This document shows, one piece after another, positions 2,481-16,531 of a stretch of DNA of 64,000 nt. How positions within the stretch are numbered: the first letter of the stretch is position 1; every line of letters begins with the position of its first letter. The notes below the pieces were generated by a model. That model had not been told where the DNA came from. It saw only the letters and a program-made list of their open reading frames with translations, and searched no databases. Both the position numbers and the translations under genes were made by a program. The stretch lies in the NCBI GenBank assembly GCA_031398425.1, contig JANNNG010000226.1:9270-73269 (forward strand). Reading direction: 5' to 3'. This DNA comes from Hyphomicrobiales bacterium (GTDB lineage Bacteria; Pseudomonadota; Alphaproteobacteria; Rhizobiales; Aestuariivirgaceae).

Positions 2481-2526
2481 GAATTCCCTCTCCGTCACGC
2501 GTTCCGCGTTGACGGAGAGGGAATTC
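2481..2526. terminator. Palindromic hairpin between convergent clpB and PP2C-like gene (REP-like, probable bidirectional terminator)
   Basis: Perfect 17-bp arms gaattccctctccgtca / tgacggagagggaattc around an inner cgcg-ttc-cgcg hairpin. Confidence 0.75.
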
Positions 2527-3376
2527 AATCACCCAGCACTACTACCGTTGCATCATCCCGGGGCTTGAAGCGCGGATATCTCTGGCACCCCGCATCAGCA
2601 TCCTCAAGCCCTCGCATCGTCTGCAACAATTCTGCCGCACCCTGCTGCGTCTGGCATGCTGCCATCAGCCCAGCATCATCAAACATCCCGTAGTAATCCA
2701 CACAGCGATAAAATCCATCCGTACACAGAAGAAGTGAATGAGGCCGCCCCAGCGTCATGAACTGCGGCATGAACAAAGAGCGCTCATGTGGTTCGACAAT
2801 GCTGTAGCCTCCCGGACGATTGCGGGTGCTGCGATTGGCCAACATCAGGGGAGCAAATTCTGCGGTCAACACCTTGATGTCGAGCTGACCGGCATCTCTG
2901 CGCTTTCGCACCTCGGTTTGCAGCTCGGCTTCAAGGTCGATCAGATTGGAAACAGGCGCCGCGTGGTGACGCACCTCGCTGTTTCGAGTGAGAAGAAAAC
3001 TGTCGCCCAGACGAAGAGCGTTCCACCCCTGGTCGGTTTTCTTCACGATCAACAGGCAACAGGCAGGAAGATCATGGTCGTCAGGAATCTCGAGGCCCTG
3101 CGAAGCAACCCGCCAGTCAGAAAGGATGCGCGACACGAGCTCACTCAGAAGAGCTTGCAGTGAGATGTCACTGGCCGCGAGTTCATGCAGATGCTTTTGC
3201 ACCCGCTCCACGATCCAGATTGCATCCGTGTGTGCAGACAGGATATTGCCCGTGTTGATACCCGTCACACCATCAATCACCCAGGCAGCAGTGATCTCGC
3301 CATCGCGTTCAATGAAGCCCAATGCATCCTCATTGTGCATTCCACTCGGCAAGGTGATCGCACTCACCAGCTTCAC
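2525..3376 (-). CDS. PPM/PP2C-fold phosphatase-like protein
   Basis: Metal-binding motifs in the expected order: NED, WVIDG, LGDS, LLCTDG, PRFKPRDDAT. Confidence 0.8.
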   Translation of the reverse strand: MKLVSAITLPSGMHNEDALGFIERDGEITAAWVIDGVTGINTGNILSAHTDAIWIVERVQKHLHELAASDISLQALLSELVSRILSDWRVASQGLEIPDDHDLPACCLLIVKKTDQGWNALRLGDSFLLTRNSEVRHHAAPVSNLIDLEAELQTEVRKRRDAGQLDIKVLTAEFAPLMLANRSTRNRPGGYSIVEPHERSLFMPQFMTLGRPHSLLLCTDGFYRCVDYYGMFDDAGLMAACQTQQGAAELLQTMRGLEDADAGCQRYPRFKPRDDATVVVLGD

Positions 3377-4437
3377 AGGTCAATCACCTTGCCTGTGCGC
3401 ACGCTTTCATCCGCCGCCAGCACGATGCGCAGTGAATTGATCGCCTCTTCCACATGCAGGGTCATGTCCCGGTCATTGATGATGGCATCCAGAAACAAGG
3501 CCTGCTCGCGGTTGCAAAGTTCCTGATGACCAGGCTCGTCGTCCATAAGGATGAGATCGTCACTGCGAGCGAATGTGCCATCCGGTTTCAACCTACCGTG
3601 ATGCACACGCAACGCCGAAGTTTTGGTGTGTGCATCGACATCTGATGAATCCGCTTTTGCTTCATCCATCGCAATCGACACGGACCCCCTGGGCCCGATC
3701 ATGTCCTTCACGAAAAACGCCGTTTCGCTCATCATTGGACCCCAACCCGCCTCATACCAACCGACAGAGCCATCATCGAACGTCACCTGCAACTGGCCAT
3801 AGTTATACATGCCCTCGTCAATGTCATCAGTCAGCCGAACGCCAATTGCATGCACACGCTTTGGCCTGGCCTCTGTGACCTGACACATCACATCGACATA
3901 GTGAACGCCACAATCCACAATCGGCGAAATAGACTGCATCAACTGCTTGTGCACAGTCCACTGGTCACCTGACGATTGCTGATTGAGGTTCATGCGCATG
4001 ACAAGCGGCTTGCCGAGAGTCTTTCCCACTTCGATGAACTTGATCCATGACGGATGCACACGGAGAATATAGCCAATGACGATCTTTCGGTTCGTTGCCT
4101 TCGCCAGTGCCGCGATGTCCGTCGCCTCGGCAACTGTCGCTGCCAGCGGCTTCTCGATGAAAACATGGGCATTCGTGTGCAACGCCATGCGGGCATATTC
4201 CGCATGAGTGTCTGGCCACGTATTGACGGAGACAGCATCAGGTTTGAGTGTGGCCAGCGCTTGTCCATAGTCGGAGAAGCGGGGAATGCCTGGAAACTCC
4301 TGTACGAGATCACTCCGCTTCTCGATACCGCGCGAACACAACCCTACAATCTCAAATCCGTCATTGCCAGCATAAGCCCGCGCATGCGACAGCCCCATGT
4401 TGCCCAACCCCACCACCAGAACCCTGACCTTGCTCAT
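3373..4437 (-). CDS. Gfo/Idh/MocA family NAD(P)-dependent oxidoreductase
   Basis: N-terminal VVGLGNMG Rossmann motif, HVFIEKP, DCGVHYVD. Confidence 0.93.
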   Translation of the reverse strand: MSKVRVLVVGLGNMGLSHARAYAGNDGFEIVGLCSRGIEKRSDLVQEFPGIPRFSDYGQALATLKPDAVSVNTWPDTHAEYARMALHTNAHVFIEKPLAATVAEATDIAALAKATNRKIVIGYILRVHPSWIKFIEVGKTLGKPLVMRMNLNQQSSGDQWTVHKQLMQSISPIVDCGVHYVDVMCQVTEARPKRVHAIGVRLTDDIDEGMYNYGQLQVTFDDGSVGWYEAGWGPMMSETAFFVKDMIGPRGSVSIAMDEAKADSSDVDAHTKTSALRVHHGRLKPDGTFARSDDLILMDDEPGHQELCNREQALFLDAIINDRDMTLHVEEAINSLRIVLAADESVRTGKVIDL

Positions 4438-5567
4438 TGCCCTTCAATCCATGTTTGTGTGACGTTGAGATCATCATCAAGATGAACAAGGCTGGCAAGA
4501 GCACCCGGAGCAATCAAGCCCAGTTGATTTTGCAAACCAAGAAATCGCGCAGGGTTGGTCGAAGCCATGCGCAGGGCAACACCAAAATCAACACCAAGCC
4601 GGGTTACACAATAGCGGAGTGCTGCATCCATTGTGAGATTTGATCCCGCAAGGGTGCCGTCCTCCAGTGTCAGTCGGTCCAGCACGCGCATGACAGTCCT
4701 GCCTTGCAGCGTGAAGGTGTCTGGCCCACCAGCAGCAGACGCCATGGCATCGGTGATCAACATGAAACGGTCTGACGATGTGGCGACCATGGCAAGCTTC
4801 AGCGCGGTGTCATGGATATGGTGACCATCGGCTATCACGCCGATATAACTCTTGTCGTCAGACAAGGCCGCCCCCACCATGCCGGGTTCGCGGCCACTAA
4901 GCTGGCTCATGGCATTGAACAGATGGGTAAAGCTCGTGGCACCCGCTGCCAATGCGGCCTGTGCCACATCAAAGCTTGCATCAGAATGGCCGAGGCTGAC
5001 AATAATGCCAGCGTCCCTCAGGTTCCGGATCTGATCTGGCGAAACACGATTGGGCGCAACCGTCAGCATCAGCTTTCCGCAATCCGCTTTTCTCAAGAGC
5101 TGAAGATCAGTTTCCGTCAGTGTACGGATTAATGTTGCATCATGCGCCCCTTTCCGCGCCACATCCAGAAACGGACCTTCCACATGAATGCCAAGCACAC
5201 CTGGCACACCCGCATGCCGTGCCTCACGCACGGCAGAAATTGCAGACGACATGATGTCGGGCACATCGGTGATGACGGTAGGCAGCAGCCCCGTCGTGCC
5301 GTGGCGACGATGCGATGTTGCAATCCGGCGGACAACGTCCAATGATGGACCGCTGTTCAGCAGCGCTCCGCCACCGCCATTCACCTGCACATCGATAAAT
5401 CCGGGTGCCAGAATACCGCCTTCAAGCTTGATTTTTTCGTGACCATCTGGAATCGCATTGTCAGCCCCGATGGCAACGATACAGCGGTCTTCAATAACGA
5501 CAGCTTGATGATCATGAAATTCTGCACCATCAAAGACCCGTGCTCCCGTCAATGCAAAGCCCATCAC
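4434..5567 (-). CDS. nagA: N-acetylglucosamine-6-phosphate deacetylase
   Basis: PGFIDVQVNG, IHVEGPF, GAH, THLFNAM, DGHH, ITDAM, LAGSNL motifs. Confidence 0.95.
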   Translation of the reverse strand: MMGFALTGARVFDGAEFHDHQAVVIEDRCIVAIGADNAIPDGHEKIKLEGGILAPGFIDVQVNGGGGALLNSGPSLDVVRRIATSHRRHGTTGLLPTVITDVPDIMSSAISAVREARHAGVPGVLGIHVEGPFLDVARKGAHDATLIRTLTETDLQLLRKADCGKLMLTVAPNRVSPDQIRNLRDAGIIVSLGHSDASFDVAQAALAAGATSFTHLFNAMSQLSGREPGMVGAALSDDKSYIGVIADGHHIHDTALKLAMVATSSDRFMLITDAMASAAGGPDTFTLQGRTVMRVLDRLTLEDGTLAGSNLTMDAALRYCVTRLGVDFGVALRMASTNPARFLGLQNQLGLIAPGALASLVHLDDDLNVTQTWIEGQ

Positions 5568-6568
5568 AGCGTCTCCGTCACCTTTTGCAACAGGCGCGGC
5601 TGATCGGGATTGCGCCCAAGAGCAACGGCAAGTTTTTCAATGGCGAGATAGGCGGTTTGCACCATGAGAATGGGTTCAAGCAGCGGATGCGCAGCCTCGA
5701 TGCTGGGCAAGTCCTCGCCGACGACAAGCACATGCGCCCCGGTTCGTCGCAGGCGTGCAACAGCAGCAAGTGTGCCCTCTCGCGCGGCATCATGTGGCGC
5801 GAAGGCCAGCACGGGAAAACCTTTTTCCACCAGTTCAAGCGGCCCGTGCATCACCTCCGCCGTCGAATAGGCCTCCGCATGAATGGCGCATGTCTCCTTC
5901 AGCTTGAGCGCCGTTTCCGCTGCAACCGGCAGGGCCGGCCCACGTCCCAGCACATAGAGTGATGCAGCATCACGCAAACCATCAACGAAGCGAGGCCACG
6001 ACACCTGACAAGCCTCATGCAGCTGTTGCGGCAACAACGCCACAGCACGCTGCAACGCGCCATCATTCGTCCACGCCGCCACGAGGGCAGCAGCCGCTGC
6101 AAGCGAAACGATGAAGGACTTTGTTGCGGCAACACTCTGCTCTGGTCCGGCATGGAGTGGCAGACACATGTCGGCGGCATCAGCCACCGGAGAGTGCTCG
6201 ACATTGACCAACGCAACAGTGAATGCACCAGATGCTTTGGCGGCCTGCTGCAGGGCCACGATATCAGGACTTTTGCCTGACTGAGAAATTGTGACCATCA
6301 GGCCACCGCGCACTTTCAGCTTCGCTCCATAGACACTGACGACGGAGGCTCCAACAGATGCCACAGGAGTGCCAGTGACGATTTCGGTCAGATATTTGAA
6401 ATAGGCTGCCGCATGATCAGAACTGCCCCTTGCTGATGTCAGCACGACAGTAGGAGGCGAAGTCGCCAACTGCTTGCCGATATCAACAAGACCGCGTGCA
6501 TTCTGGTCCAGAAATCGCTGCACAGCATCCGGTGCTTCGCGCGCTTCGCTCTGCATGAAGCTCGTCAT
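5564..6568 (-). CDS. nagB: SIS-domain glucosamine-6-phosphate deaminase (NagB-II / GlmS C-terminal-like)
   Basis: ARGSSDHA, ISQSGKSPD, VAATKS, LKLKET, EVMHGP, NPDQPRLLQKVTET. No glutaminase domain. Confidence 0.85.
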   Translation of the reverse strand: MTSFMQSEAREAPDAVQRFLDQNARGLVDIGKQLATSPPTVVLTSARGSSDHAAAYFKYLTEIVTGTPVASVGASVVSVYGAKLKVRGGLMVTISQSGKSPDIVALQQAAKASGAFTVALVNVEHSPVADAADMCLPLHAGPEQSVAATKSFIVSLAAAAALVAAWTNDGALQRAVALLPQQLHEACQVSWPRFVDGLRDAASLYVLGRGPALPVAAETALKLKETCAIHAEAYSTAEVMHGPLELVEKGFPVLAFAPHDAAREGTLAAVARLRRTGAHVLVVGEDLPSIEAAHPLLEPILMVQTAYLAIEKLAVALGRNPDQPRLLQKVTETL

Positions 6569-7332
6569 CGCGCCTCCGGAGCCAGCGTCAGTTCCGCCAC
6601 GAAGTCATAACTGTCACCCCGGTAATGCGAACGCGTGTATTCAACAATGCGGCCATCTGCGAGATAGGAGATACGTTCCACAAACAGGGCTGCACTGCCA
6701 TCAGGCTGGTCCAGCCAATCCGCTTCTTGCGCATTCAATGATGTGGCATGCAACCGCTGCAAGGCCCGCACGGGGCGAAGGCCTTTTGCATCCAGCACGG
6801 CGTAGAGCGAGTGCTGCACAACCGTCACATCATTGAGAAAGCGGTGCGGCACCACCGCGTGTTCTATGGCCAGCGGCTCACCATCGGCATGACGCAAGCG
6901 ATGAAAGCGGCAAACATGTTCAGAAGGTGAGATGGAAAGCTTGATCGCCTCCTCCGGCGTTGCAAGTCCAGACGAACGATCAAGCCAGCGGGCTTGCGTC
7001 TTCAAACCTCTCAGTGCCATGTCCTCGGTGAAACTGGTCAAGCGTGACAGAGGAAGTTCGATACGGCTCGTTCGCTCGCGCACATAGGTGCCAGAACCGC
7101 GCCGCTGCACCAGCACACCTTCATCCACCAATTCTGTGAACGCCTTGCGTACGGTGACACGGCTCACATCCAGCAATTCCGCCACATCACGTTCACTGGG
7201 AACAGAATCGCCAGCCTTCAACTCGCCATCAGCAATCGCGTCCTGCACCAACAGCTTGAGGCGCTGATAAAGCGGCGCGTGTTGCCGCGCCTGAAAGCGC
7301 TGTTGTGCAAACACCCGGGCAGCGATAGTCAT
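6565..7332 (-). CDS. nagQ: GntR/HutC-family transcriptional regulator (NagQ-like)
   Basis: PSERDVAELLDVSRVTVRKA wHTH plus UTRA domain. Sits inside a nag operon, with TGGTATT repeats upstream. Confidence 0.8.
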   Translation of the reverse strand: MTIAARVFAQQRFQARQHAPLYQRLKLLVQDAIADGELKAGDSVPSERDVAELLDVSRVTVRKAFTELVDEGVLVQRRGSGTYVRERTSRIELPLSRLTSFTEDMALRGLKTQARWLDRSSGLATPEEAIKLSISPSEHVCRFHRLRHADGEPLAIEHAVVPHRFLNDVTVVQHSLYAVLDAKGLRPVRALQRLHATSLNAQEADWLDQPDGSAALFVERISYLADGRIVEYTRSHYRGDSYDFVAELTLAPEAR

Positions 7333-8213
7333 GACCAGTGCTCTGGCAGACCCTGCGCGCGCCTTGCCATCATGATCGCACCATCAACGGCGTCTGCATC
7401 AGGCAAAACCAGCGCCGCTCGTACATCAGCATCAAGATAGGGCGGATAGACCTGCGCCAACCCTCCCAGGATACAGAGCCGCCCTGCCCCCCGTGCCAAC
7501 AAGGCGTGGCCCAGTTTTGAAATCGCAGCAGCCCCTTCAATCACAATGGTCATGCCCTGCACATCCGCCCGACCTGCATGCTCGAACACCAGCGGTGCGA
7601 AGCTTGCATAGTCACGCGGTGTTGCGGTTTCCGACCAGCGCGACAATGCGTGCCGCGTGCGCCCCGCCCTCCGTAACACCGCTTCAATCAATGCTGTGGG
7701 CTGCAACAATCCATCCAGCGCCAGCGCCGCACGCCGCACAGCATGGTGCCCCAGCCACGCACCCGAACCATGGTCCCCCAATTGAAAGCCCCAGCCCCCC
7801 ACCATATGACGAATGTCATCCACCACGCCAAAACCGATGGACCCCGTGCCCGCAATGACGATGCCGCCATTGCTGCCACTGAACGCTCCCATGCAGGCCG
7901 CATAGGCATCGTTGTCAGCGATCACGGACGCAAACGGCAAATGCGCGGCGTGAATTTTTTCGGCCCCAACCGACGTCACAATACCAGCAAGCCCCAACCC
8001 CGCATGCAGTTGTTCTATCGCAACACCAGCAAGCAAAGCAGCTTCCGCTCCAGCAGCGATGATGTTCGCAATCGAACCGTCAAAGTTCTGATAGATATTG
8101 GCAGGACCACCCGACGCCTCACCCAGCACACGTCCATTCACGTCGCGGATGCGCGCCCGGCACTTCGAACCGCCGCCGTCGATTCCCAGAAAAAACTGCC
8201 GCGAAGTGGTCAT
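7329..8213 (-). CDS. nagK: BadF/BadG/BcrA/BcrD-type N-acetylglucosamine kinase
   Basis: LGIDGGGSKCR, GPAN, NDAYAA, IAGTGSI, GGWGFQLGDHGSGAW. Confidence 0.85.
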   Translation of the reverse strand: MTTSRQFFLGIDGGGSKCRARIRDVNGRVLGEASGGPANIYQNFDGSIANIIAAGAEAALLAGVAIEQLHAGLGLAGIVTSVGAEKIHAAHLPFASVIADNDAYAACMGAFSGSNGGIVIAGTGSIGFGVVDDIRHMVGGWGFQLGDHGSGAWLGHHAVRRAALALDGLLQPTALIEAVLRRAGRTRHALSRWSETATPRDYASFAPLVFEHAGRADVQGMTIVIEGAAAISKLGHALLARGAGRLCILGGLAQVYPPYLDADVRAALVLPDADAVDGAIMMARRAQGLPEHWS

Positions 8214-8222
8214 GCCACCGAC

Positions 8223-8240
8223 AATACCAAAACAATACCA
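8223..8240 (-). promoter_or_regulatory. Tandem TGGTATT repeat (putative NagQ operator) upstream of nagK
   Basis: aatacca at 8223-8229 and 8234-8240 (11-bp period), i.e. TGGTATT x2 on the minus strand. Confidence 0.65.
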
Positions 8241-8333
8241 TATTGAAAAGACATTTTTAACTTATCGTAATCAATTGAATTTATTTCATAATTACGAACA
8301 CAGTGTAGCCAGATAAAATCTCCTCTCGACAAG

Positions 8334-8351
8334 TGGTTTTATTTTGGTATT
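8334..8351 (+). promoter_or_regulatory. Tandem TGGTTTT/TGGTATT repeat (putative NagQ operator) upstream of murQ
   Basis: tggtttt 8334-8340 and tggtatt 8345-8351, same 11-bp period, ending 8 bp before the murQ ATG. Confidence 0.6.
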
Positions 8352-8359
8352 TGTTGACC

Positions 8360-9268
8360 ATGGAAAGTCGAACTTCAACCGAGTCCAGCCTGGCCGATCT
8401 CACGGGCTTCGACACCTGGGATGACCAGCGCATTCTCGCAGCCTTGCTGGCGGGCCAACGGCGCGCACTGGATGCGGTGGAACGCGCCCTTCCCGCCATC
8501 GCGCAGGCAGCAGCACTGGTTACCGATCGCATTGGCAAAAGCGGTCACCTGTTTTATGCTGGTGCTGGCACATCCATCCGCGTCGGCGTCCAGGACGGCA
8601 CGGAACTGCCCGCCACCTTTGGCCTGTCGGAAGACAAGCTTGAATATCTCATTGCCGGTGGCAAGGCCGCCATGTTCGAAACCATGGCCGATGCCGAAGA
8701 TGACGTGGCCGCAGGCCGCACCGCTGCGCAAGTCTGCACCGCTGCAGACGTGCTCATCGCCATCGCCGCATCAGGCCGCACGCCCTACACCATTGCCGCT
8801 GCCGAGCAGGCGCAGGAATTGGGCTGTGCCGTCATCACCATTGTCAATAATGCCGGTTCCCCCCTGTCAATGCTTGGCGACGTGAGAGTCACGATCGAAA
8901 CCGGCGCAGAGGTCATCTCCGGTTCAACGCGATTGTCTGCCGGCACGGCACAGAAGGCCACTCTCAATCTGATCTCGTCCCTCGCCTTCACGCGCCTGGG
9001 TGCCGTGCATGATGGTTTGATGGTGAACGTCGAGGCCGGCAACAGTAAACTCGTTGCAAGGTCGCGTGGCATCGTCATGAAGATTGCGGGCGTAGATGAC
9101 GTCGCGGCAGGTGATGCATTGGAGGAAACCAGCAACGACATCAAATCAGCTATTCTCATTTGCAAAGGTGCTCGTCTTGCTGAAGCGCAACGACTGTTGA
9201 GCGAAGAAAATGGAAATCTGCGACGGGCCCTGGCCACCCACTTGTCGAAACTTCAAACATCGGTGTAG
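8360..9268 (+). CDS. murQ: N-acetylmuramic acid 6-phosphate etherase
   Basis: YAGAGTS, QDGTELPATFG, AED, IAASGRTPY, GAEVISGSTRLSAGTAQK, LMVNV. Confidence 0.88.
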   Translation: MESRTSTESSLADLTGFDTWDDQRILAALLAGQRRALDAVERALPAIAQAAALVTDRIGKSGHLFYAGAGTSIRVGVQDGTELPATFGLSEDKLEYLIAGGKAAMFETMADAEDDVAAGRTAAQVCTAADVLIAIAASGRTPYTIAAAEQAQELGCAVITIVNNAGSPLSMLGDVRVTIETGAEVISGSTRLSAGTAQKATLNLISSLAFTRLGAVHDGLMVNVEAGNSKLVARSRGIVMKIAGVDDVAAGDALEETSNDIKSAILICKGARLAEAQRLLSEENGNLRRALATHLSKLQTSV

Positions 9269-9305
9269 CCTCAATATTATTCAATCATGGAAAGGGAGTA
9301 TAAAA

Positions 9306-10556
9306 ATGAAAACAACGCTGAAAACCCTGTTGCTGGCCGCCGTGGCCACAACGGCACTGGCCTCCGCCGCATCCGCCGGAAAGCTCACCATCGAAAGCTG
9401 GCGCAACGATGATGCGGCGATCTGGAAAGACAAGATCATCCCCGCTTTCAACGCCAAGCACCCCGACATCCAGGTGGAATTCACGCCAACGGCACCGAAA
9501 GAATACAATGCCGCGTTGAATGCACGCCTTGAAGGCGGCACAGCTGGCGACATCATCACCTGCCGCCCCTTTGATGCCTCACTCGAACTCTTTACCAAAG
9601 GCAATCTCGCAGCGTTGAACGATCTGCCATCAATGGCAAATTTCTCTGACGTCGCCAAAAGTGCCTGGACTACGGATGATGGCAAGAGCACATTCTGCGT
9701 GCCCATGGCGTCGGTGATCCACGGCTTCATCTACAACAAGGACATCTTCAAGGAAGTGGGCGTTGAACCGCCGAAGACAGAAGAAGAATTTTTGGCCGTC
9801 CTCGAAAAGATCAAGGCCAATGGCAAATACACGCCCCTCGTGATGGGCACCAACGACCAGTGGGAAGCCGCCACCATGGGCTTCCAGAACATTGGCCCCA
9901 ATTACTGGAAAGGCGAGGAAGGCAGGAAAGGCCTGATTGATGGAACTGCGAAACTCACCGACAAACCCTACGTCGATACCTTTGCAGCACTCGCCAAATG
10001 GTCACCCTACATGGGTGAAGGTTACAAAGCACAAACCTATCCCGACAGCCAGAACCTCTTCGGCCTCGGCAAGGGTGCCGTCTACGCTGCGGGCTCCTGG
10101 GACATTTCCACTTTCCGTGGCCAGAATGTGAACATGGGTGCCTTCAAGGCTCCGCCACCAGCGGGCAGTGATTGCTACATCTCCGACCACACTGACATCG
10201 GCATCGGCCTCAACGCCAAATCAGCCAATGCCGCTGAGGCCAAGATGTTTCTGGATTGGGTGGGATCAGAAGAATTCGCCAACATCTTTGCAAACTCCCT
10301 GCCCGGCTTTTTCCCCTTGTCCAACGCCAAGATCACCCTGTCGGATGATGTGGCGCAGGAATTCGTGAACTGGCGCGGCACCTGCAAATCCACAATCCGC
10401 AACAGCTATCAGATCCTGTCGCGCGGCACGCCGAACCTTGAGAACGAAATGTGGAACGTGTCGGCACAAGTGCTGAACGGCAGCATGACACCGCAAGCCG
10501 CAACAACCCAGCTGCAGGATGGCTTGAAGAAGTGGTACGCCCCACAGCAGAAATAG
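9306..10556 (+). CDS. Carbohydrate ABC transporter (CUT1) substrate-binding protein
   Basis: Signal peptide, SBP_bac_1-like sequence, GGGAG RBS, first gene of an SBP-permease-permease-ATPase set. Confidence 0.92.
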   Translation: MKTTLKTLLLAAVATTALASAASAGKLTIESWRNDDAAIWKDKIIPAFNAKHPDIQVEFTPTAPKEYNAALNARLEGGTAGDIITCRPFDASLELFTKGNLAALNDLPSMANFSDVAKSAWTTDDGKSTFCVPMASVIHGFIYNKDIFKEVGVEPPKTEEEFLAVLEKIKANGKYTPLVMGTNDQWEAATMGFQNIGPNYWKGEEGRKGLIDGTAKLTDKPYVDTFAALAKWSPYMGEGYKAQTYPDSQNLFGLGKGAVYAAGSWDISTFRGQNVNMGAFKAPPPAGSDCYISDHTDIGIGLNAKSANAAEAKMFLDWVGSEEFANIFANSLPGFFPLSNAKITLSDDVAQEFVNWRGTCKSTIRNSYQILSRGTPNLENEMWNVSAQVLNGSMTPQAATTQLQDGLKKWYAPQQK

Positions 10557-10571
10557 TAGTTTGCCCTTAAG

Positions 10572-10703
10572 TCGTCATTCCAAACGCCCGCCCTATCGCG
10601 GGCGATTTGGAACCCCGCTTTCTCTGACGTCAGTTTTACCCGTCAGAGAATAGCGGGGTTCCAGTTCGCGCTCCGCAAGTGCTACGCTTGTCTGGAATGA
10701 CGA
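10572..10703. repeat. Palindromic intergenic element (GTCATTCC...GGAATGAC type, RPE/RIME-like)
   Basis: Terminal inverted repeats tcgtcattcca / tggaatgacga. Inner near-perfect arms tggaaccccgctttctctgacg / cgtcagagaatagcggggttcca. Confidence 0.85.
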
Positions 10704-10736
10704 TTGTATTGAATTGAATGACGATGCAATAGAAAC

Positions 10737-11687
10737 ATGTCCTCACAACAGCACTCCCACCTCGTCGGCATGTCACGCAGCGCCTACACGCGCGCGCTGA
10801 TCTTCTTCCTCGCTCCCGCCATGCTGATCTATTCGCTCTTCTCCATCTACCCACTCATCGCCACCATCGTGAATTCCTTCTACGACAAGCAGGACAACGG
10901 CACTTATCTCTACATCGGTATTGCCAACTTCCGAACCCTGCTCACCGACCCCACATGGTCAGCACCCTTCTGGAATGCGTTCTGGAACAATTGCAAATTC
11001 TTCTTTGTCCACATGCTGGTGCAAAATCCCATCGGCCTCCTGCTCGCGGCACTTTTGAGCCTGCCAGTGCTGCGTTTCCGCTCAACTTACAGAACGCTGA
11101 TCTTCATGCCGACAATGCTCTCCGTCGTCGTCATCGGTTTCACATGGCAACTGATCCTCTCGCCACTCTGGGGCATTGCGAAAATGTTCCTGCAAACCAT
11201 AGGCGTAGGGTTCATGTTCGCACCCTGGCTCGGCGAAGAATCAACAGCACTTCTCACCATCTCACTGATCTCGGTCTGGCAATTCGTGGGCATTCCCATG
11301 ATCCTCATCTATACGGCCCTGCTTGCCATTCCTGAAGAGTTGATCGACGCCGCAACAGTGGATGGCCTCAACCAGTTCGAAGCCTTCGTCTATGTGAAGC
11401 TGCCGCTGATCTGGCCCACCATCGGGCTGGTATCAGTCCTTACCTTCGTCAACAACTTCAACGCCTTTGATCTCATCTACGCCATGAAGGGCGCACTTGC
11501 CGGCCCGAATTACTCTGCCGACATCATGGGCACGCTGTTCTACCGCGTTTTCTTCGGCAACCAGTTGCAGAATGGTGATGTGTCCATGGGTGCCACCATC
11601 GCAACAATGATGCTGTTGATCATCTTGTGCGGCGTCATGCTCTATCTCTTCGCCATCCAGCGCCGCCTGCAGAGGTATTCCTTCTGA
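10737..11687 (+). CDS. Sugar ABC transporter permease (MalF-like)
   Basis: Hydrophobic helices. EAA loop IPEELIDAATVDG. Confidence 0.93.
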   Translation: MSSQQHSHLVGMSRSAYTRALIFFLAPAMLIYSLFSIYPLIATIVNSFYDKQDNGTYLYIGIANFRTLLTDPTWSAPFWNAFWNNCKFFFVHMLVQNPIGLLLAALLSLPVLRFRSTYRTLIFMPTMLSVVVIGFTWQLILSPLWGIAKMFLQTIGVGFMFAPWLGEESTALLTISLISVWQFVGIPMILIYTALLAIPEELIDAATVDGLNQFEAFVYVKLPLIWPTIGLVSVLTFVNNFNAFDLIYAMKGALAGPNYSADIMGTLFYRVFFGNQLQNGDVSMGATIATMMLLIILCGVMLYLFAIQRRLQRYSF

Positions 11688-12514
11688 TGCGAAAACCAGC
11701 CTCCGCCTTCATCGTCCACGCCATTCTCGGGCTTTATACGCTACTGGCCCTGTTCCCCATCATCCTCGTCATCATGAATTCCTTCAAGGCCAAGCGCGCC
11801 ATCTTCAACACGCCGCTGCAACCGCCCATGCCATGGAACTTTGATCCCATCGGTTACACCAAGGTCTTTGGCGATAGTGCCATCGCCACCTACTACATGA
11901 ACTCGATCACGGTCACCGTGGGCACCATCTTCTTCACGCTGCTGTTCGGTGCCATGGCAGCCTGGGCGCTGACCGAATACAAGTTCCGCTTCAACACCGC
12001 ACTGGGACTGTTCCTCGCCATTGGCATCATGGTGCCGATACGATTGGGCTCCGTGTCGATCATTCAACTGGTGGCCAATCTCAACCTCATCAACACGCTG
12101 ACAGCGTTGATCCTCGTCTACATCGCGCAAAATCTGCCGCTTGCCGTGTTCATTCTCTCTGAATTTATCCAGCAAATTCCAAAAGATTTACGCGAAGCCG
12201 GGCGCTGTGATGGCCTCTCGGAATACAACATCTTCTTCTATATCGTGCTGCCGCTGCTGCGCCCCGCTATGGCCACGGTCGCCGTCTTCACCATGATCCC
12301 CGTCTGGAATGATCTCTGGTTCCCGCTGCTCCTCGCCCCCACCGGCGGCAAGCAGACCATCACATTGGGCGTGCAACAATTCCTCGGACAATACATCACC
12401 GACTGGAATGCCGTGCTGGCCGCTCTGAGCACAGCCATCATTCCCGTGCTCATTCTTTATGTCATCTTCTCCCGCCAGTTGATCCGGGGCTTGACCTCGG
12501 GAGCAGTAAAATGA
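11687..12514 (+). CDS. Sugar ABC transporter permease (MalG-like)
   Basis: TGATG overlap with the previous gene. IPKDLREAGRCDG EAA loop, WNDLWFPL. Confidence 0.93.
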   Translation: MRKPASAFIVHAILGLYTLLALFPIILVIMNSFKAKRAIFNTPLQPPMPWNFDPIGYTKVFGDSAIATYYMNSITVTVGTIFFTLLFGAMAAWALTEYKFRFNTALGLFLAIGIMVPIRLGSVSIIQLVANLNLINTLTALILVYIAQNLPLAVFILSEFIQQIPKDLREAGRCDGLSEYNIFFYIVLPLLRPAMATVAVFTMIPVWNDLWFPLLLAPTGGKQTITLGVQQFLGQYITDWNAVLAALSTAIIPVLILYVIFSRQLIRGLTSGAVK

Positions 12515-12521
12515 GTGCGCC

Positions 12522-13580
12522 ATGGCCGAAGTGAAAATCGACAACCTCCACAAATCCTACGGCAAGGTCGATGTGCTGAAAGACATCAACCTCGTCGTCG
12601 AGGACGGTTCCTTCGTCGTCCTCGTCGGCCCATCAGGCTGTGGCAAGTCCACCCTGTTGCGAACCGTTGCAGGCCTTGAACCCATCAACAGCGGCGAAAT
12701 TTCCATAGCAGGCCGCAACGTCAGCACCCTTGCCCCGGCGCAGCGCGAAATCGCCATGGTATTCCAGTCCTACGCGCTTTATCCGCACATGAACGTCGAG
12801 AACAACATGGCCTTCGGCCTGAAGTTTGCGCGCACACCGAAGGACGAAATCACAAGGCGCGTCGCCGAAGCCTCGCGCATCCTGCAACTGGAACCGCTGC
12901 TCAAGCGCCGCCCCAAGGAACTCTCGGGTGGCCAACGCCAGCGCGTCGCCATTGGCCGCGCCATCGTGCGAAAGCCAAAAGTCTTTCTGTTCGACGAACC
13001 CCTGTCAAATCTCGATGCGGCCCTCCGCATCAACACCCGTGTGGAAATCGCAAAGCTGCACAAGCTGCTGAACGCGACAATCCTCTACGTGACCCACGAT
13101 CAGGTTGAGGCCATGACCCTCGCCGACAAGATCGTGGTCATGAACGAGGGCCGCATCGAACAAACCGGAAAACCCCTCGATCTCTACTATAAACCCGCCA
13201 ACCTCTTCGTGGCCCGCTTCATCGGCTCACCCGCCATGAACATTCTTCCAGCAGCCGTAGCGAATACCAACACGGTCGATCTGGGTTCAGGTCTGACGCT
13301 GAAAGTGATCCTGCCCAAACACATGAAGGCAAATGACAAGCTGAGCATGGGATGCCGACCCGAACACATGACACTCACTACTAAAGGCATCCGAGGCACC
13401 ATCGACATCATCGAACGCCTCGGCGAAACCGGCTACGCCCATGTGCGACTGCCGACAGGGCAAGTTGTCGTGGTTGAGGTGCGGGGCGAACCACCCCAGG
13501 GCAAAGACGGCAAGGTGAATGTAGCGTTTTCACCAGATCATATGCATCTGTTTGACCAGAACGGCTTGCGTATCGGCTAA
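12522..13580 (+). CDS. Sugar ABC transporter ATP-binding protein (MalK/UgpC-like)
   Basis: [33 protein letters not shown]-like C-terminus. Confidence 0.96.
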   Translation: MAEVKIDNLHKSYGKVDVLKDINLVVEDGSFVVLVGPSGCGKSTLLRTVAGLEPINSGEISIAGRNVSTLAPAQREIAMVFQSYALYPHMNVENNMAFGLKFARTPKDEITRRVAEASRILQLEPLLKRRPKELSGGQRQRVAIGRAIVRKPKVFLFDEPLSNLDAALRINTRVEIAKLHKLLNATILYVTHDQVEAMTLADKIVVMNEGRIEQTGKPLDLYYKPANLFVARFIGSPAMNILPAAVANTNTVDLGSGLTLKVILPKHMKANDKLSMGCRPEHMTLTTKGIRGTIDIIERLGETGYAHVRLPTGQVVVVEVRGEPPQGKDGKVNVAFSPDHMHLFDQNGLRIG

Positions 13581-13785: not shown

Positions 13786-14063
13786 GTGAAATTGACAAGC
13801 TGCACAGCCCTGGCATCGCCGGAGGCTTGTTGGTCCAAGTTAGGCCGCCATGGAATCGAGCACCATGGCAAAGCGGATTGCCGCATCGGTCAGCGCCCCC
13901 ACCTTGTGGATGTAAGAGAACATCGCCCCCGACATGCCAGCAAGCTGAAAAACCGCCGCCGCGCGCGTTCGTCGGATAAATTGCATTGTGCAATGCGGCA
14001 TGCTAGGAGCGCGGCAATCTCAAGCCTCTACAGCAAGCCCTCACAGAAAGTCACAGCACTCCT

Positions 14064-15890
14064 ATGGATCTGCGCAATATCGCCATTATCGCCCACGTTG
14101 ACCACGGCAAGACAACGCTGATCGACCGTCTGCTCAGCCAGTCCGGCACCTTTCGCGACAACCAGAAGGTGGGCGAACGCGTCATGGATTCGAATGATCT
14201 TGAGCGTGAACGCGGCATCACCATCCTCGCCAAGGTCACTTCGCTGCAATGGCACGACACCCGCATCAACATCGTTGACACGCCGGGCCACGCCGATTTT
14301 GGCGGTGAGGTTGAACGCATTCTCAACATGGTCGATGGTTGCGTGCTGCTGGTGGACGCCGCCGAAGGCCCGATGCCACAGACCAAGTTCGTGCTGCAAA
14401 AGGCCTTGAAACTCGGCCTCAAGCCTATCGTCTGTATTAACAAGATCGACCGTCCGGATGAACGTCACATCGAAGTGGTGAACGAAGTTTTCGATCTGTT
14501 CGCAGCACTTGATGCATCAGAAGAACAACTCGACTTTCCGATCATCTATGGGTCGGCAAAACACGGCTGGATGGCTGACAAGCCGGAAGGCCCGCAGGTC
14601 AACATGGACCCGCTGTTTGCCCTGGTGGTCAAGCATTTCGCACCCCCTGTGATTGAACCCGGCGAATTTCGCATGCTGGCCACCACACTCGAAGCCAACG
14701 CTTTCCTCGGCCGCATTCTGACAGGCCGCATCCGCTCAGGCTCGGTAAAGCCAAACCAACAGGTCAAGATTCTGGCCCGTGACGGTTCGGTTGTTGAAAC
14801 CGGCCGCGTGTCAAAAGTGCTGTCCTTCCGTGGCATTGAACGCGTCCCCGTCGAAGAAGCCCATGCGGGTGACATCGTGGCCATCGCAGGTCTCGTGAAA
14901 GCGACCGTGTCCGACACCTTCGTTGATCCTGCAATCACCGAACCCATCGCCGCCACTCCAATCGATCCTCCAACACTCGCGATGGCCTTCCGCATCAATG
15001 ACGGACCACTGGCTGGCAAGGAAGGCGACAAGGTGCAATCCCGCGTCATCCGTGAACGCTTGTTGCGCGAGTCAGAAGGCAACATTGCGCTGCGCGTCAC
15101 CGCATCCGAAACCGAAACCGATGCTTTTGAAGTGGCGGGCCGTGGTGAATTGCAGTTGGGCATCCTGATTGAAACCATGCGGCGCGAAGGCTTTGAACTC
15201 ACGGTGGGGCGACCGCGCGTGGTCTATCAAATCGACGAAACCACCGGCGAAAAAATGGAACCCGTCGAAGAAGTCATCATCGACGTGGATGAAGCTTACG
15301 CAGGCGTCGTCGTCCAGAAAGTCTCGGAGCGCAAGGGCGAACTCCGCGATATGCGGCCCTCCGGCACCGGTCGTCAGCGTCTCGTCTTCCATGCGCCAAC
15401 GCGCGGCCTCATCGGTTACCAGTCTGAACTGTTGTCAGACACGCGCGGCACCGCCATCATGAACCGCCTGTTCCATTCCTATGCCCCTTTCATGGGCAAC
15501 ATTGCCAGTCGCCACACCGGTGCCCTCATCTCCAATGGTGAAGGCGAAGCCGTGGTTTACGCCATGTTCAACCTACAGGATCGTGGGCCCATGTTCATTG
15601 AGCCCGGCGCCAAGGTCTATGCTGGCATGATCATCGGCGAACACACGCGCGGCAATGACCTTGAGCTTAATGTGCTGAAGGAGAAAAAACTCTCCAACGT
15701 ACGTTCAAAGGGCGCAGAAGAAGCACAGATTTTGACGCCGCCGATCAAGATGTCGCTGGAAAAAGCGCTCGCCTATATCGGCGAAGATGAGTTGGTGGAA
15801 ATCACGCCAAAGTCTATCCGGCTGCGCAAGACCATTCTTGATCCCACGGAAAGAAAGCGCCTGTCGCGGCAGAAAGAGGCTGCGGCCTAA
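14064..15890 (+). CDS. typA: Translational GTPase TypA/BipA
   Basis: [47 protein letters not shown]. Confidence 0.98.
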
Positions 15891-16477
15891 TCACTTTCAC
15901 ATCCTCCCTGAGGTGCCACACCATCAACGGATGTGCCGGGGTTGGCAAAAAAAATTGTCTTTCCCACTTTGCAGGAAAAGACTTCCGCTGCTGTATCCGC
16001 CAGCCAGCGCGCCTTCTCATTGGCATTGGGATAGCTGCCTTCGACATAGCCCACATGGCAGGATTGGCGTTCGTCCACCTTGGTCACAACAAGCCAGTCC
16101 TTGGTCTTGCTTCCATCGTCAGGGTCGTAAGACACCTTCCAGCGCAGAATGGTGGCAATGGCCTTGTCCCCCTTCAACCGCCATTCGATCTTGTTGCCCA
16201 CGGAATTGAAGCCTGAAAAGGTCTGACGAAAAGCGCAGTGATTGCGCCCGTCCCGGCCATAGGCCACGAGCGCACGCAGATCACCTTCGGCAAAAGTGAC
16301 GGCCACACCCTTGTATCCCCGGCATTCATAAGTCGGGCTGAACTCGCCCTCACCAGGTGCCGAACCGGGCTCGATCTCTCTGCATTTCTCTGGATTGAAA
16401 TCCGTATAGGCACTGTCGTTTCCCGCCAGCGCCGAACCGCAAAGCAGCGTTGCGATTATCAAAACCAAGCCGCGCAT
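15887..16477 (-). CDS. Secreted cysteine-containing hypothetical protein
   Basis: Signal peptide (MRGLVLIIATLLCGSALA), six Cys in the mature part, plausible coding composition. No family recognised. Confidence 0.75.
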   Translation of the reverse strand: MRGLVLIIATLLCGSALAGNDSAYTDFNPEKCREIEPGSAPGEGEFSPTYECRGYKGVAVTFAEGDLRALVAYGRDGRNHCAFRQTFSGFNSVGNKIEWRLKGDKAIATILRWKVSYDPDDGSKTKDWLVVTKVDERQSCHVGYVEGSYPNANEKARWLADTAAEVFSCKVGKTIFFANPGTSVDGVAPQGGCESD

Positions 16478-16531
16478 GTCACTCTCCCAAACATGCCCCC
16501 GAAAGTAACGCTATCAGCAATTGGCGTGGCG

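Follow-up and report, generated by a model that had tools for sequence, protein, structure and literature searches.

A PPM-fold phosphatase gene, predicted to close a NagQ-type amino-sugar operon of a Hyphomicrobiales bacterium, is linked to nag genes in other species

Phosphatases encoded within sugar catabolic operons have their precedents in NagD and AraL (PMC3207120). NagD (UmpH) of Escherichia coli, a nucleotide and sugar phosphatase of the HAD-IIA type, is specified by the last gene of the N-acetylglucosamine (GlcNAc) operon nagBACD, in which its role is still unclear; AraL of Bacillus subtilis, a HAD-IIA sugar phosphatase of the arabinose operon, has been proposed to detoxify accumulated sugar phosphates (PMC3207120). 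A third enzyme, MupP, the HAD-type phosphatase of Pseudomonas that acts on N-acetylmuramic acid 6-phosphate (MurNAc-6P), is not encoded in nag or murQ operons; its Caulobacter counterpart has been assigned to CCNA_02390, a Gph-like HAD protein (PMC13046382). The gene described here lies in a 64,000-nucleotide stretch of DNA from a Hyphomicrobiales bacterium (contig JANNNG010000226.1), which we call the window, and it appears to end an operon for amino-sugar catabolism, its product being a predicted phosphatase of the PPM (PP2C-like) fold. As a phosphatase gene closing a GlcNAc operon it is placed like nagD; as an accessory, operon-embedded phosphatase gene it is like araL, which we have adopted as working model; and it shares the metabolic neighbourhood of MupP, with AmgK and MurU encoded in the same genome. 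Its product, however, has no HAD match, and its fold is unrelated to that of NagD or to the HAD folds of AraL and MupP, so that the likeness to all three is one of functional analogy only. AraL differs further in acting on another sugar and in having a measured activity.

The putative operon consists of six minus-strand genes, nagK-nagQ-nagB-II-nagA-gfo and the PP2C-like gene, and by the coordinates of their open reading frames all five junctions are 4-nucleotide stop/start overlaps (7329-7332, 6565-6568, 5564-5567, 4434-4437 and 3373-3376). At the last of these, GTGA (3376-3373), the GTG start codon of the PP2C-like gene (2525..3376) overlaps the gfo stop codon. The first gene, nagK (7329..8213), specifies a BadF/BadG-type N-acetylhexosamine kinase, NagK/MurK-like (PF01869; NF046058 at 227 bits, below the cut-off of 370), and nagQ (6565..7332) a GntR/HutC-family repressor with a UTRA domain, of the NagQ type (PF00392 and PF07702). 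They are followed by nagB-II (5564..6568), for a glucosamine-6-phosphate deaminase of the SIS type with two SIS domains (NF046059, matched over its full length at 334 bits, below the cut-off of 430); nagA (4434..5567), for GlcNAc-6-phosphate deacetylase (TIGR00221, 309.6 bits, above the cut-off of 225.65); and gfo (3373..4437), for a nicotinamide adenine dinucleotide-dependent oxidoreductase of the Gfo/Idh/MocA family (PF01408, PF22725, PF02894). The tandem TGGTATT-N4-TGGTATT, a putative NagQ operator in the light of comparative genomics, occurs as a candidate site upstream of nagK, where the match is perfect (8223..8240, minus strand), and with one mismatch at the start of the divergent murQ gene (8334..8351, plus strand); these two matches are the only ones in the 3.53-Mb genome. 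The same tandem lies upstream of nagK in 26 of the 34 nagQ-bearing loci of other species. Loci without nagQ have a TTTGCTAGCA-like motif in its place.

At its other end the operon meets a convergent gene, clpB, and between the two stop codons lies a perfect hairpin with 16-bp arms (2481..2526), whose RNA fold has a computed energy of -39.8 kcal/mol (z = -7.0 against shuffles) and which may serve as a bidirectional terminator or as an RNA-stability element. The hairpin overlaps the stop codon of the PP2C-like gene and has no T-run. Within the operon, terminator-like and promoter-like matches are no commoner than in shuffled sequence. The PP2C-like gene shares with the nag genes their strand, unbroken by gaps, the candidate operator and, as described below, synteny across species; we assign it as the final cistron, coupled by overlap, of an amino-sugar operon of the NagQ type.

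The protein of 283 amino acids has a single Pfam match, to PF13672 (PP2C_2), over residues 10-251 (43.1 bits against a cut-off of 24). The PPM metal-binding motifs are all present, as N15-E16-D17, D35-G36, G124-D125-S126, T219-D220-G221 and D274-D275. Ten of these residues (E16, D17, D35, G36, G124, D125, D220, G221, D274 and D275) are invariant among 55 homologs, and D17, D35, D125, D220, D274 and D275 are kept in 100% of 137 sequences of the wider family. Outside this core the family conserves W32, T38, D51, W54, P104, R182, N186, G190, Y191, R224, R255, E258, D261, R269 and K271. AlphaFold2, supplied with the 55-sequence alignment, returned a PPM fold with high confidence (predicted local distance difference test score, pLDDT, 93.9; predicted template-modelling score, pTM, 0.92), and dN/dS in pairs of close homologs is 0.11-0.33. 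The gene is thus predicted to encode an intact enzyme under purifying selection, and its product to be a cytoplasmic, single-domain, catalytically intact PPM-fold metallophosphatase belonging to a distinct family of proteins of about 283 residues. In these respects the sequence-only reading of the window was sound: the six genes as one minus-strand unit with an overlap at every junction were recovered at exactly the same coordinates, the motifs that it had listed are those of the invariant catalytic residues, and the structure prediction that it had proposed as a check bore out the fold.

The family itself numbers 1,296 clusters at E<=1e-3 and 517 at E<=1e-10 (clustered at 50% identity), nearly all of the best 150 clusters listed being 265-320 amino acids long. 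Its nearest solved structures are those of bacterial PPM protein phosphatases. Foldseek placed PstP (1txo), MspP (2jfs), tPphA (2j86) and Stp1 (5f1m) first among PDB entries, at E ~1e-9 and 14-17% identity, with TM scores of 0.56 by query and 0.66 by target; it found 122 PDB matches at E<=0.001, the best 50 of which are all PPM-fold, PPM phosphatases together with the PPM-like pseudophosphatase TAB1. The window protein has in common with these phosphatases the fold, the acidic metal-binding motifs and a single-domain cytoplasmic nature. It departs from them in sequence, identity being confined to the level just given and no solved relative appearing in PDB searches either with the protein itself or, at the level of hidden Markov models, with a profile of the 55-sequence alignment; in structure, about 40% of the modelled chain lying outside the shared PPM core, with a helical hairpin (144-182) and loop at the position of the flap; and in setting, since it is encoded in a catabolic operon rather than beside a kinase, in a genome without a partner kinase. 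The Stp1/IreP equivalog model, NF033484, gives 22.3 bits against a cut-off of 230. Canonical PPMs carry a phosphate-binding Arg a few residues before NED; at the level of the motif, the consensus of this family there is GSGxVNED, without Arg.

To what extent the gene keeps its place beside nag genes was gauged from one genome per species, which gave 80 loci, from Aestuariivirga and other Hyphomicrobiales, Parvibaculaceae, Dongiaceae and one Rhodospirillum metagenome-assembled genome; the 74 with usable upstream DNA are informative, and the window proteins were mapped onto them by tblastn. In 57 of the 74 informative loci, all in other species, the homolog immediately follows nagA or gfo on the same strand: it comes directly after gfo in 41, with the same 4-nucleotide overlap in 36 of these, and directly after nagA in 16. 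Elsewhere it is divergent from a cutC gene (10 loci), is followed by one (2 loci) or has another context (5 loci, among them L017, where nag genes are still close by). In most loci the divergent neighbour is murQ, and nagQ is missing from many that retain the PP2C-like gene. Linkage to nag genes is far beyond chance, and the absence of enrichment beside nag/mur genes, which the sequence-only reading had named as fatal to its proposal, is not what the tabulated neighbourhoods show.

In a quick maximum-likelihood tree all of the loci just tabulated fall in one clade (81 rows, SH-aLRT 88), within which 73 rows form a subclade of Aestuariivirga type (support 100) and 8 rows one of Dongiaceae type (support 99). 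Loci with cutC alone or with an odd context branch from within the nag-linked ones; nag linkage is therefore ancestral in the clade, and the relocations are secondary. Linkage was also gained again, independently, by a distant member of the family: in genome G168 a protein from a distant branch (24% identity) is encoded at the end of a NagK-like/NagQ operon, without nagA, nagB or murQ, that is divergent from an orthologous ABC-Gfo operon (substrate-binding protein 65% and Gfo 60% identical).

The same murQ-ABC / nagK-Q-B-A architecture occurs without the PP2C-like gene in genomes of the same order, whose substrate-binding proteins are 65-69% identical to that of the window; one same-order genome lacking the gene still has gfo after nagA. 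As a check for displacement we looked at what follows nagA in such relatives, and found a DAO oxidoreductase, an SIS protein, M23 peptidases or transporters, never a phosphatase. Because relatives with the same operon have no replacing phosphatase, the PP2C-like gene is to be seen, on this comparative evidence, as an accessory add-on, neither an obligatory step nor a stand-in for a missing enzyme, and a role as overflow valve or regulator therefore fits better than one as an obligatory pathway step. The DAO-type flavin adenine dinucleotide oxidoreductase that follows nagA in two of these same-order loci (L142:5845-6957 and L143) is another lineage-specific addition to the operon.

The reading that we prefer, by analogy and as a nearly even call, is that the PP2C-like protein serves as an auxiliary small-molecule phosphatase of the amino-sugar pathway, filling a NagD/AraL-like role on a PPM fold. 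It would be produced along with the kinase and the catabolic enzymes in the presence of amino sugar, and would hydrolyse a small phosphorylated metabolite related to that pathway; GlcNAc-6P, glucosamine 6-phosphate (GlcN-6P) and MurNAc-6P are candidates, as is a nucleotide monophosphate, for example uridine monophosphate. It would act as an accessory valve for overflow or reset, limiting toxic build-up of sugar phosphates and lowering the level of the phosphosugar inducer. Operon membership, as seen in the five overlaps, the genome-unique candidate operators and the terminal hairpin, is consistent with such a role, as are the conserved nag linkage with its second gain in G168, the intact enzyme under purifying selection, and the presence of family members in other sugar operons: two border CUT1 ABC operons for sugars (L089, L113), and one closes a rhamnose operon, following RhaI (L059). 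A small-molecule flavour is lent by a metagenomic protein of 470 residues (P0268) in which the PP2C-like domain is fused to a Ham1/ITPase nucleotide house-cleaning domain, by a TauD-PP2C-NUDIX-MFS cluster in Pseudomonas coronafaciens (L084) and by a family member placed before a YjgF gene (L112). Nor was any protein-kinase logic found in the genome of the window or around the gene in about 20 loci whose neighbours had been annotated for domains.

Several observations pull the other way. All the structurally or biochemically characterised PPMs known to us are protein phosphatases, the top Foldseek matches among them, and we know of no physiological small-molecule PPM that has been established. 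Relatives run the same operon with neither the gene nor a phosphatase in its stead, so no step requires it; the CutC-type context has no sugar kinase; and the Ham1 fusion is a single cluster. The residues conserved outside the PPM core are common to family members in very different gene contexts, which argues for a common substrate rather than a nag-specific one.

A serious rival, which we consider less likely than the metabolite reading, is that the protein is a protein phosphatase specific to the pathway, expressed along with the nag genes and acting on a protein that governs or carries out the use of amino sugars. Its target might be the ATPase of the ABC importer, NagK, NagQ, the phosphoserine enzyme GlmM or a component of the nitrogen-related phosphotransferase system (PTS-Ntr), with the phosphate coming from a non-Hanks kinase or from autophosphorylation. 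The complete PPM catalytic set and the Ser/Thr protein phosphatases that are its nearest structures agree with this, and one common protein target would account for extra residues kept across such different contexts. Flaps mediate the choice of protein substrate in known PPMs, and here the flap region is enlarged (about residues 139-204) and carries the conserved R182/N186/G190/Y191. The minimal NagK-NagQ-PP2C operon of G168 looks regulatory, the gene is accessory, as regulators often are, and a CUT1 ABC importer is a recurrent partner across the family. What is lacking is the other half of such a system. In the genome of the window, which is 95% complete, no PF00069 match to a Hanks kinase was obtained at E<=0.001, nor any HPr kinase or match to a SpoIIE-type PPM (PF07228); the sole STAS match is in a 580-residue frame typical of a SulP transporter, leaving no free STAS protein; and HATPase_c_2 matches are confined to frames of 358-833 residues resembling histidine kinases, none the size of RsbW. 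The known partner systems of PPMs are therefore absent, and with no STAS substrate or RsbW-type kinase found the protein does not fit partner switching of the RsbU/SpoIIE type. The earlier remark that no Ser/Thr kinase partner is visible in the window can accordingly be extended to the whole genome. Of 14 other carrier genomes 6 have no Hanks-kinase match and one more has only a match below threshold, while in the roughly 20 annotated loci not one protein kinase adjoins the family gene. As for NagQ as a target, many loci retain the gene and have no nagQ, and the sparse and patchy occurrence of the family—in 15 of 401 sampled Pseudomonadota genomes and 11 of 212 genera—is unlike that of a core signalling module.

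The contexts of the wider family raise a second alternative. Besides the sugar operons already mentioned, members follow genes for pyruvate dehydrogenase (PDH) E1beta-E2 (L116, L117), adjoin genes for SGL-type lactonases (L110, L118) or for a kynureninase, are flanked on both sides by M20 peptidase genes (L119) or, in Tepidibacter, by those of an epimerase and a GT4 glycosyltransferase, or stand alone. So mixed a set, together with the Ham1 fusion, the NUDIX neighbour and the switches of context inside the nag-linked clade, would suit a hydrolase of general housekeeping or metabolite repair, such as a nucleotidase acting on damaged or surplus nucleotides, or an enzyme of other metal-dependent chemistry, with no specific amino-sugar role, whose gene rides on well-expressed catabolic operons. 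We think this improbable, since nag linkage has been kept across two orders and regained by a distant member, and since translational coupling at 36 of 41 Gfo-PP2C junctions is more than hitch-hiking predicts. Two further candidate PP2C-Ham1 fusions, P0389 and P0395, were rejected, having no PP2C domain. The PDH-linked members, from one alphaproteobacterial genus, follow the genes for the E1beta and E2 subunits of a pyruvate/2-oxoacid dehydrogenase at a gap of 174-220 bp (L116:7995-12995, L117:6384-8819); their placement may recall the mitochondrial PPM-type phosphatases of PDH and of branched-chain 2-oxoacid dehydrogenase (BCKDH), though this could be a coincidence.

The proposal that the protein is a non-homologous MupP equivalent, made in the sequence-only reading, presupposes a route from MurNAc back to the cell wall, and the enzymes for such a route are probably encoded. 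On another contig of the same genome, outside the window (C58, ~14000-16500), a 508-residue TsaE-AmgK fusion is followed by a MurU-like nucleotidyltransferase, the matches to AmgK and MurU (252 and 234 bits) covering the full length but falling short of the equivalog cut-offs; MurNAc salvage through the MurU shunt is thus probably present alongside the catabolic MurQ route. No protein of the genome reaches the cut-off of 359 for the MupP equivalog (NF009696), the best scoring 121.5 bits. The proposal is weakened by two Gph-like HAD proteins encoded in the genome, one of them a gene away from a GH3 gene, which are of the CCNA_02390 kind (PMC13046382). That the PP2C-like protein converts MurNAc-6P to MurNAc, for return by AmgK and MurU to UDP-MurNAc, and so sets the branch of imported or recycled muramic acid between catabolism by MurQ and cell-wall synthesis, would suit the divergent murQ of most loci, but we consider it very improbable, since besides these HAD candidates the G168, CutC-only and rhamnose loci retain the gene without murQ, free MurNAc imported by the ABC transporter could go straight to AmgK with no 6-phosphate detour, and relatives with AmgK-type biology do without the gene. 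An APH-type kinase adjacent to the family gene at L039 was considered as an AmgK and rejected, being choline-kinase/GntI-like. The HAD_2 and Hydrolase_6 genes of the genome lie away from the operon, and since two HAD-IIA genes of the NagD type are found elsewhere in it there is no simple story of NagD replacement either.

Divergent from nagK, on the plus strand, murQ (8333..9268) specifies MurNAc-6-phosphate etherase (NF003915, 293.8 bits, above the cut-off of 168), and beyond it lies a CUT1-type sugar ABC importer (9210..13580; PF01547/PF13416), whose synteny across loci was followed by tblastn. The importer comprises a binding protein (9210-10556), two permeases (10737-11687 and 11627-12514) and an ATPase (12522-13580) that matches the UgpC/MalK-type model NF008653 at 483.6 bits. 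Gfo has no close characterised homolog, its best PDB match having E 6e-17. Its gene is a mobile member of the system, being placed after nagA in the 41 loci counted above and closing the ABC operon in Dongiaceae and G168 (L114:1466-2512; L075, L079, L080).

A second recurrent companion of the PP2C-like gene is a module of CutC (PF03932), an amidase (PF01425), an SDR protein and a CUT1 ABC importer, found at L082:8862-11095, at L003, L023, L029, L033, L034, L056 and L072, at L049, L051 and L053, where it abuts murQ, and at L075-L080; cutC is adjacent to the PP2C-like gene in 12 of the 74 informative loci. In Dongiaceae cutC sits between nagA and the PP2C-like gene; the genome of the window has no cutC. 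The candidate NagQ operator was sought in the intergenic regions between cutC and the PP2C-like gene and is absent from them, so that the relocated copies are not visibly part of the NagQ regulon. The recurrence of the module suggests a part for CutC, annotated under 'copper homeostasis', in the catabolism of amino sugars or muropeptides. A literature search for a new function of CutC returned nothing relevant, and the CutC-amidase module offers a testable lead for this long-unexplained family.

Phosphatases embedded in operons are already known, but these are of the HAD fold, and a PPM-fold member in a nag/mur operon is the new element here. The sequence-only reading knew of no PPM gene as a standard member of such operons, and our literature search for PPMs in nag/mur operons, and for small-molecule PPMs, produced no published case and nothing relevant, and in the PF13672 passages of a 2025 PP2C_2 classification paper gene context is not discussed. 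We would go further, as a reading somewhat less likely than not, in proposing that the family as a whole (>500 clusters at 50% identity, E<1e-10) may be the first PPM-fold enzymes with a small metabolite, sugar phosphate or nucleotide, as physiological substrate, and that the nag-linked clade may have arrived by convergence at the part played by NagD, to which it is not homologous.

The usual annotation of PPM/PP2C genes is as Ser/Thr protein phosphatases, and finding them is taken as a sign of eukaryote-like signalling; here a whole PPM family sits in metabolic operons, in genomes without matching kinases. Should the substrate prove to be a protein, this would suggest that amino-sugar uptake or catabolism in Alphaproteobacteria is controlled post-translationally, with phosphorylation by some other way than the known partner systems. 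If it acts on a metabolite, as we prefer to think, the known chemistry of the PPM fold would be widened and many annotations corrected; a phosphatase 'valve' would then be a recurrent functional part of amino-sugar catabolic operons, lending support to valves of the NagD/AraL type as a general design feature of sugar catabolic operons.

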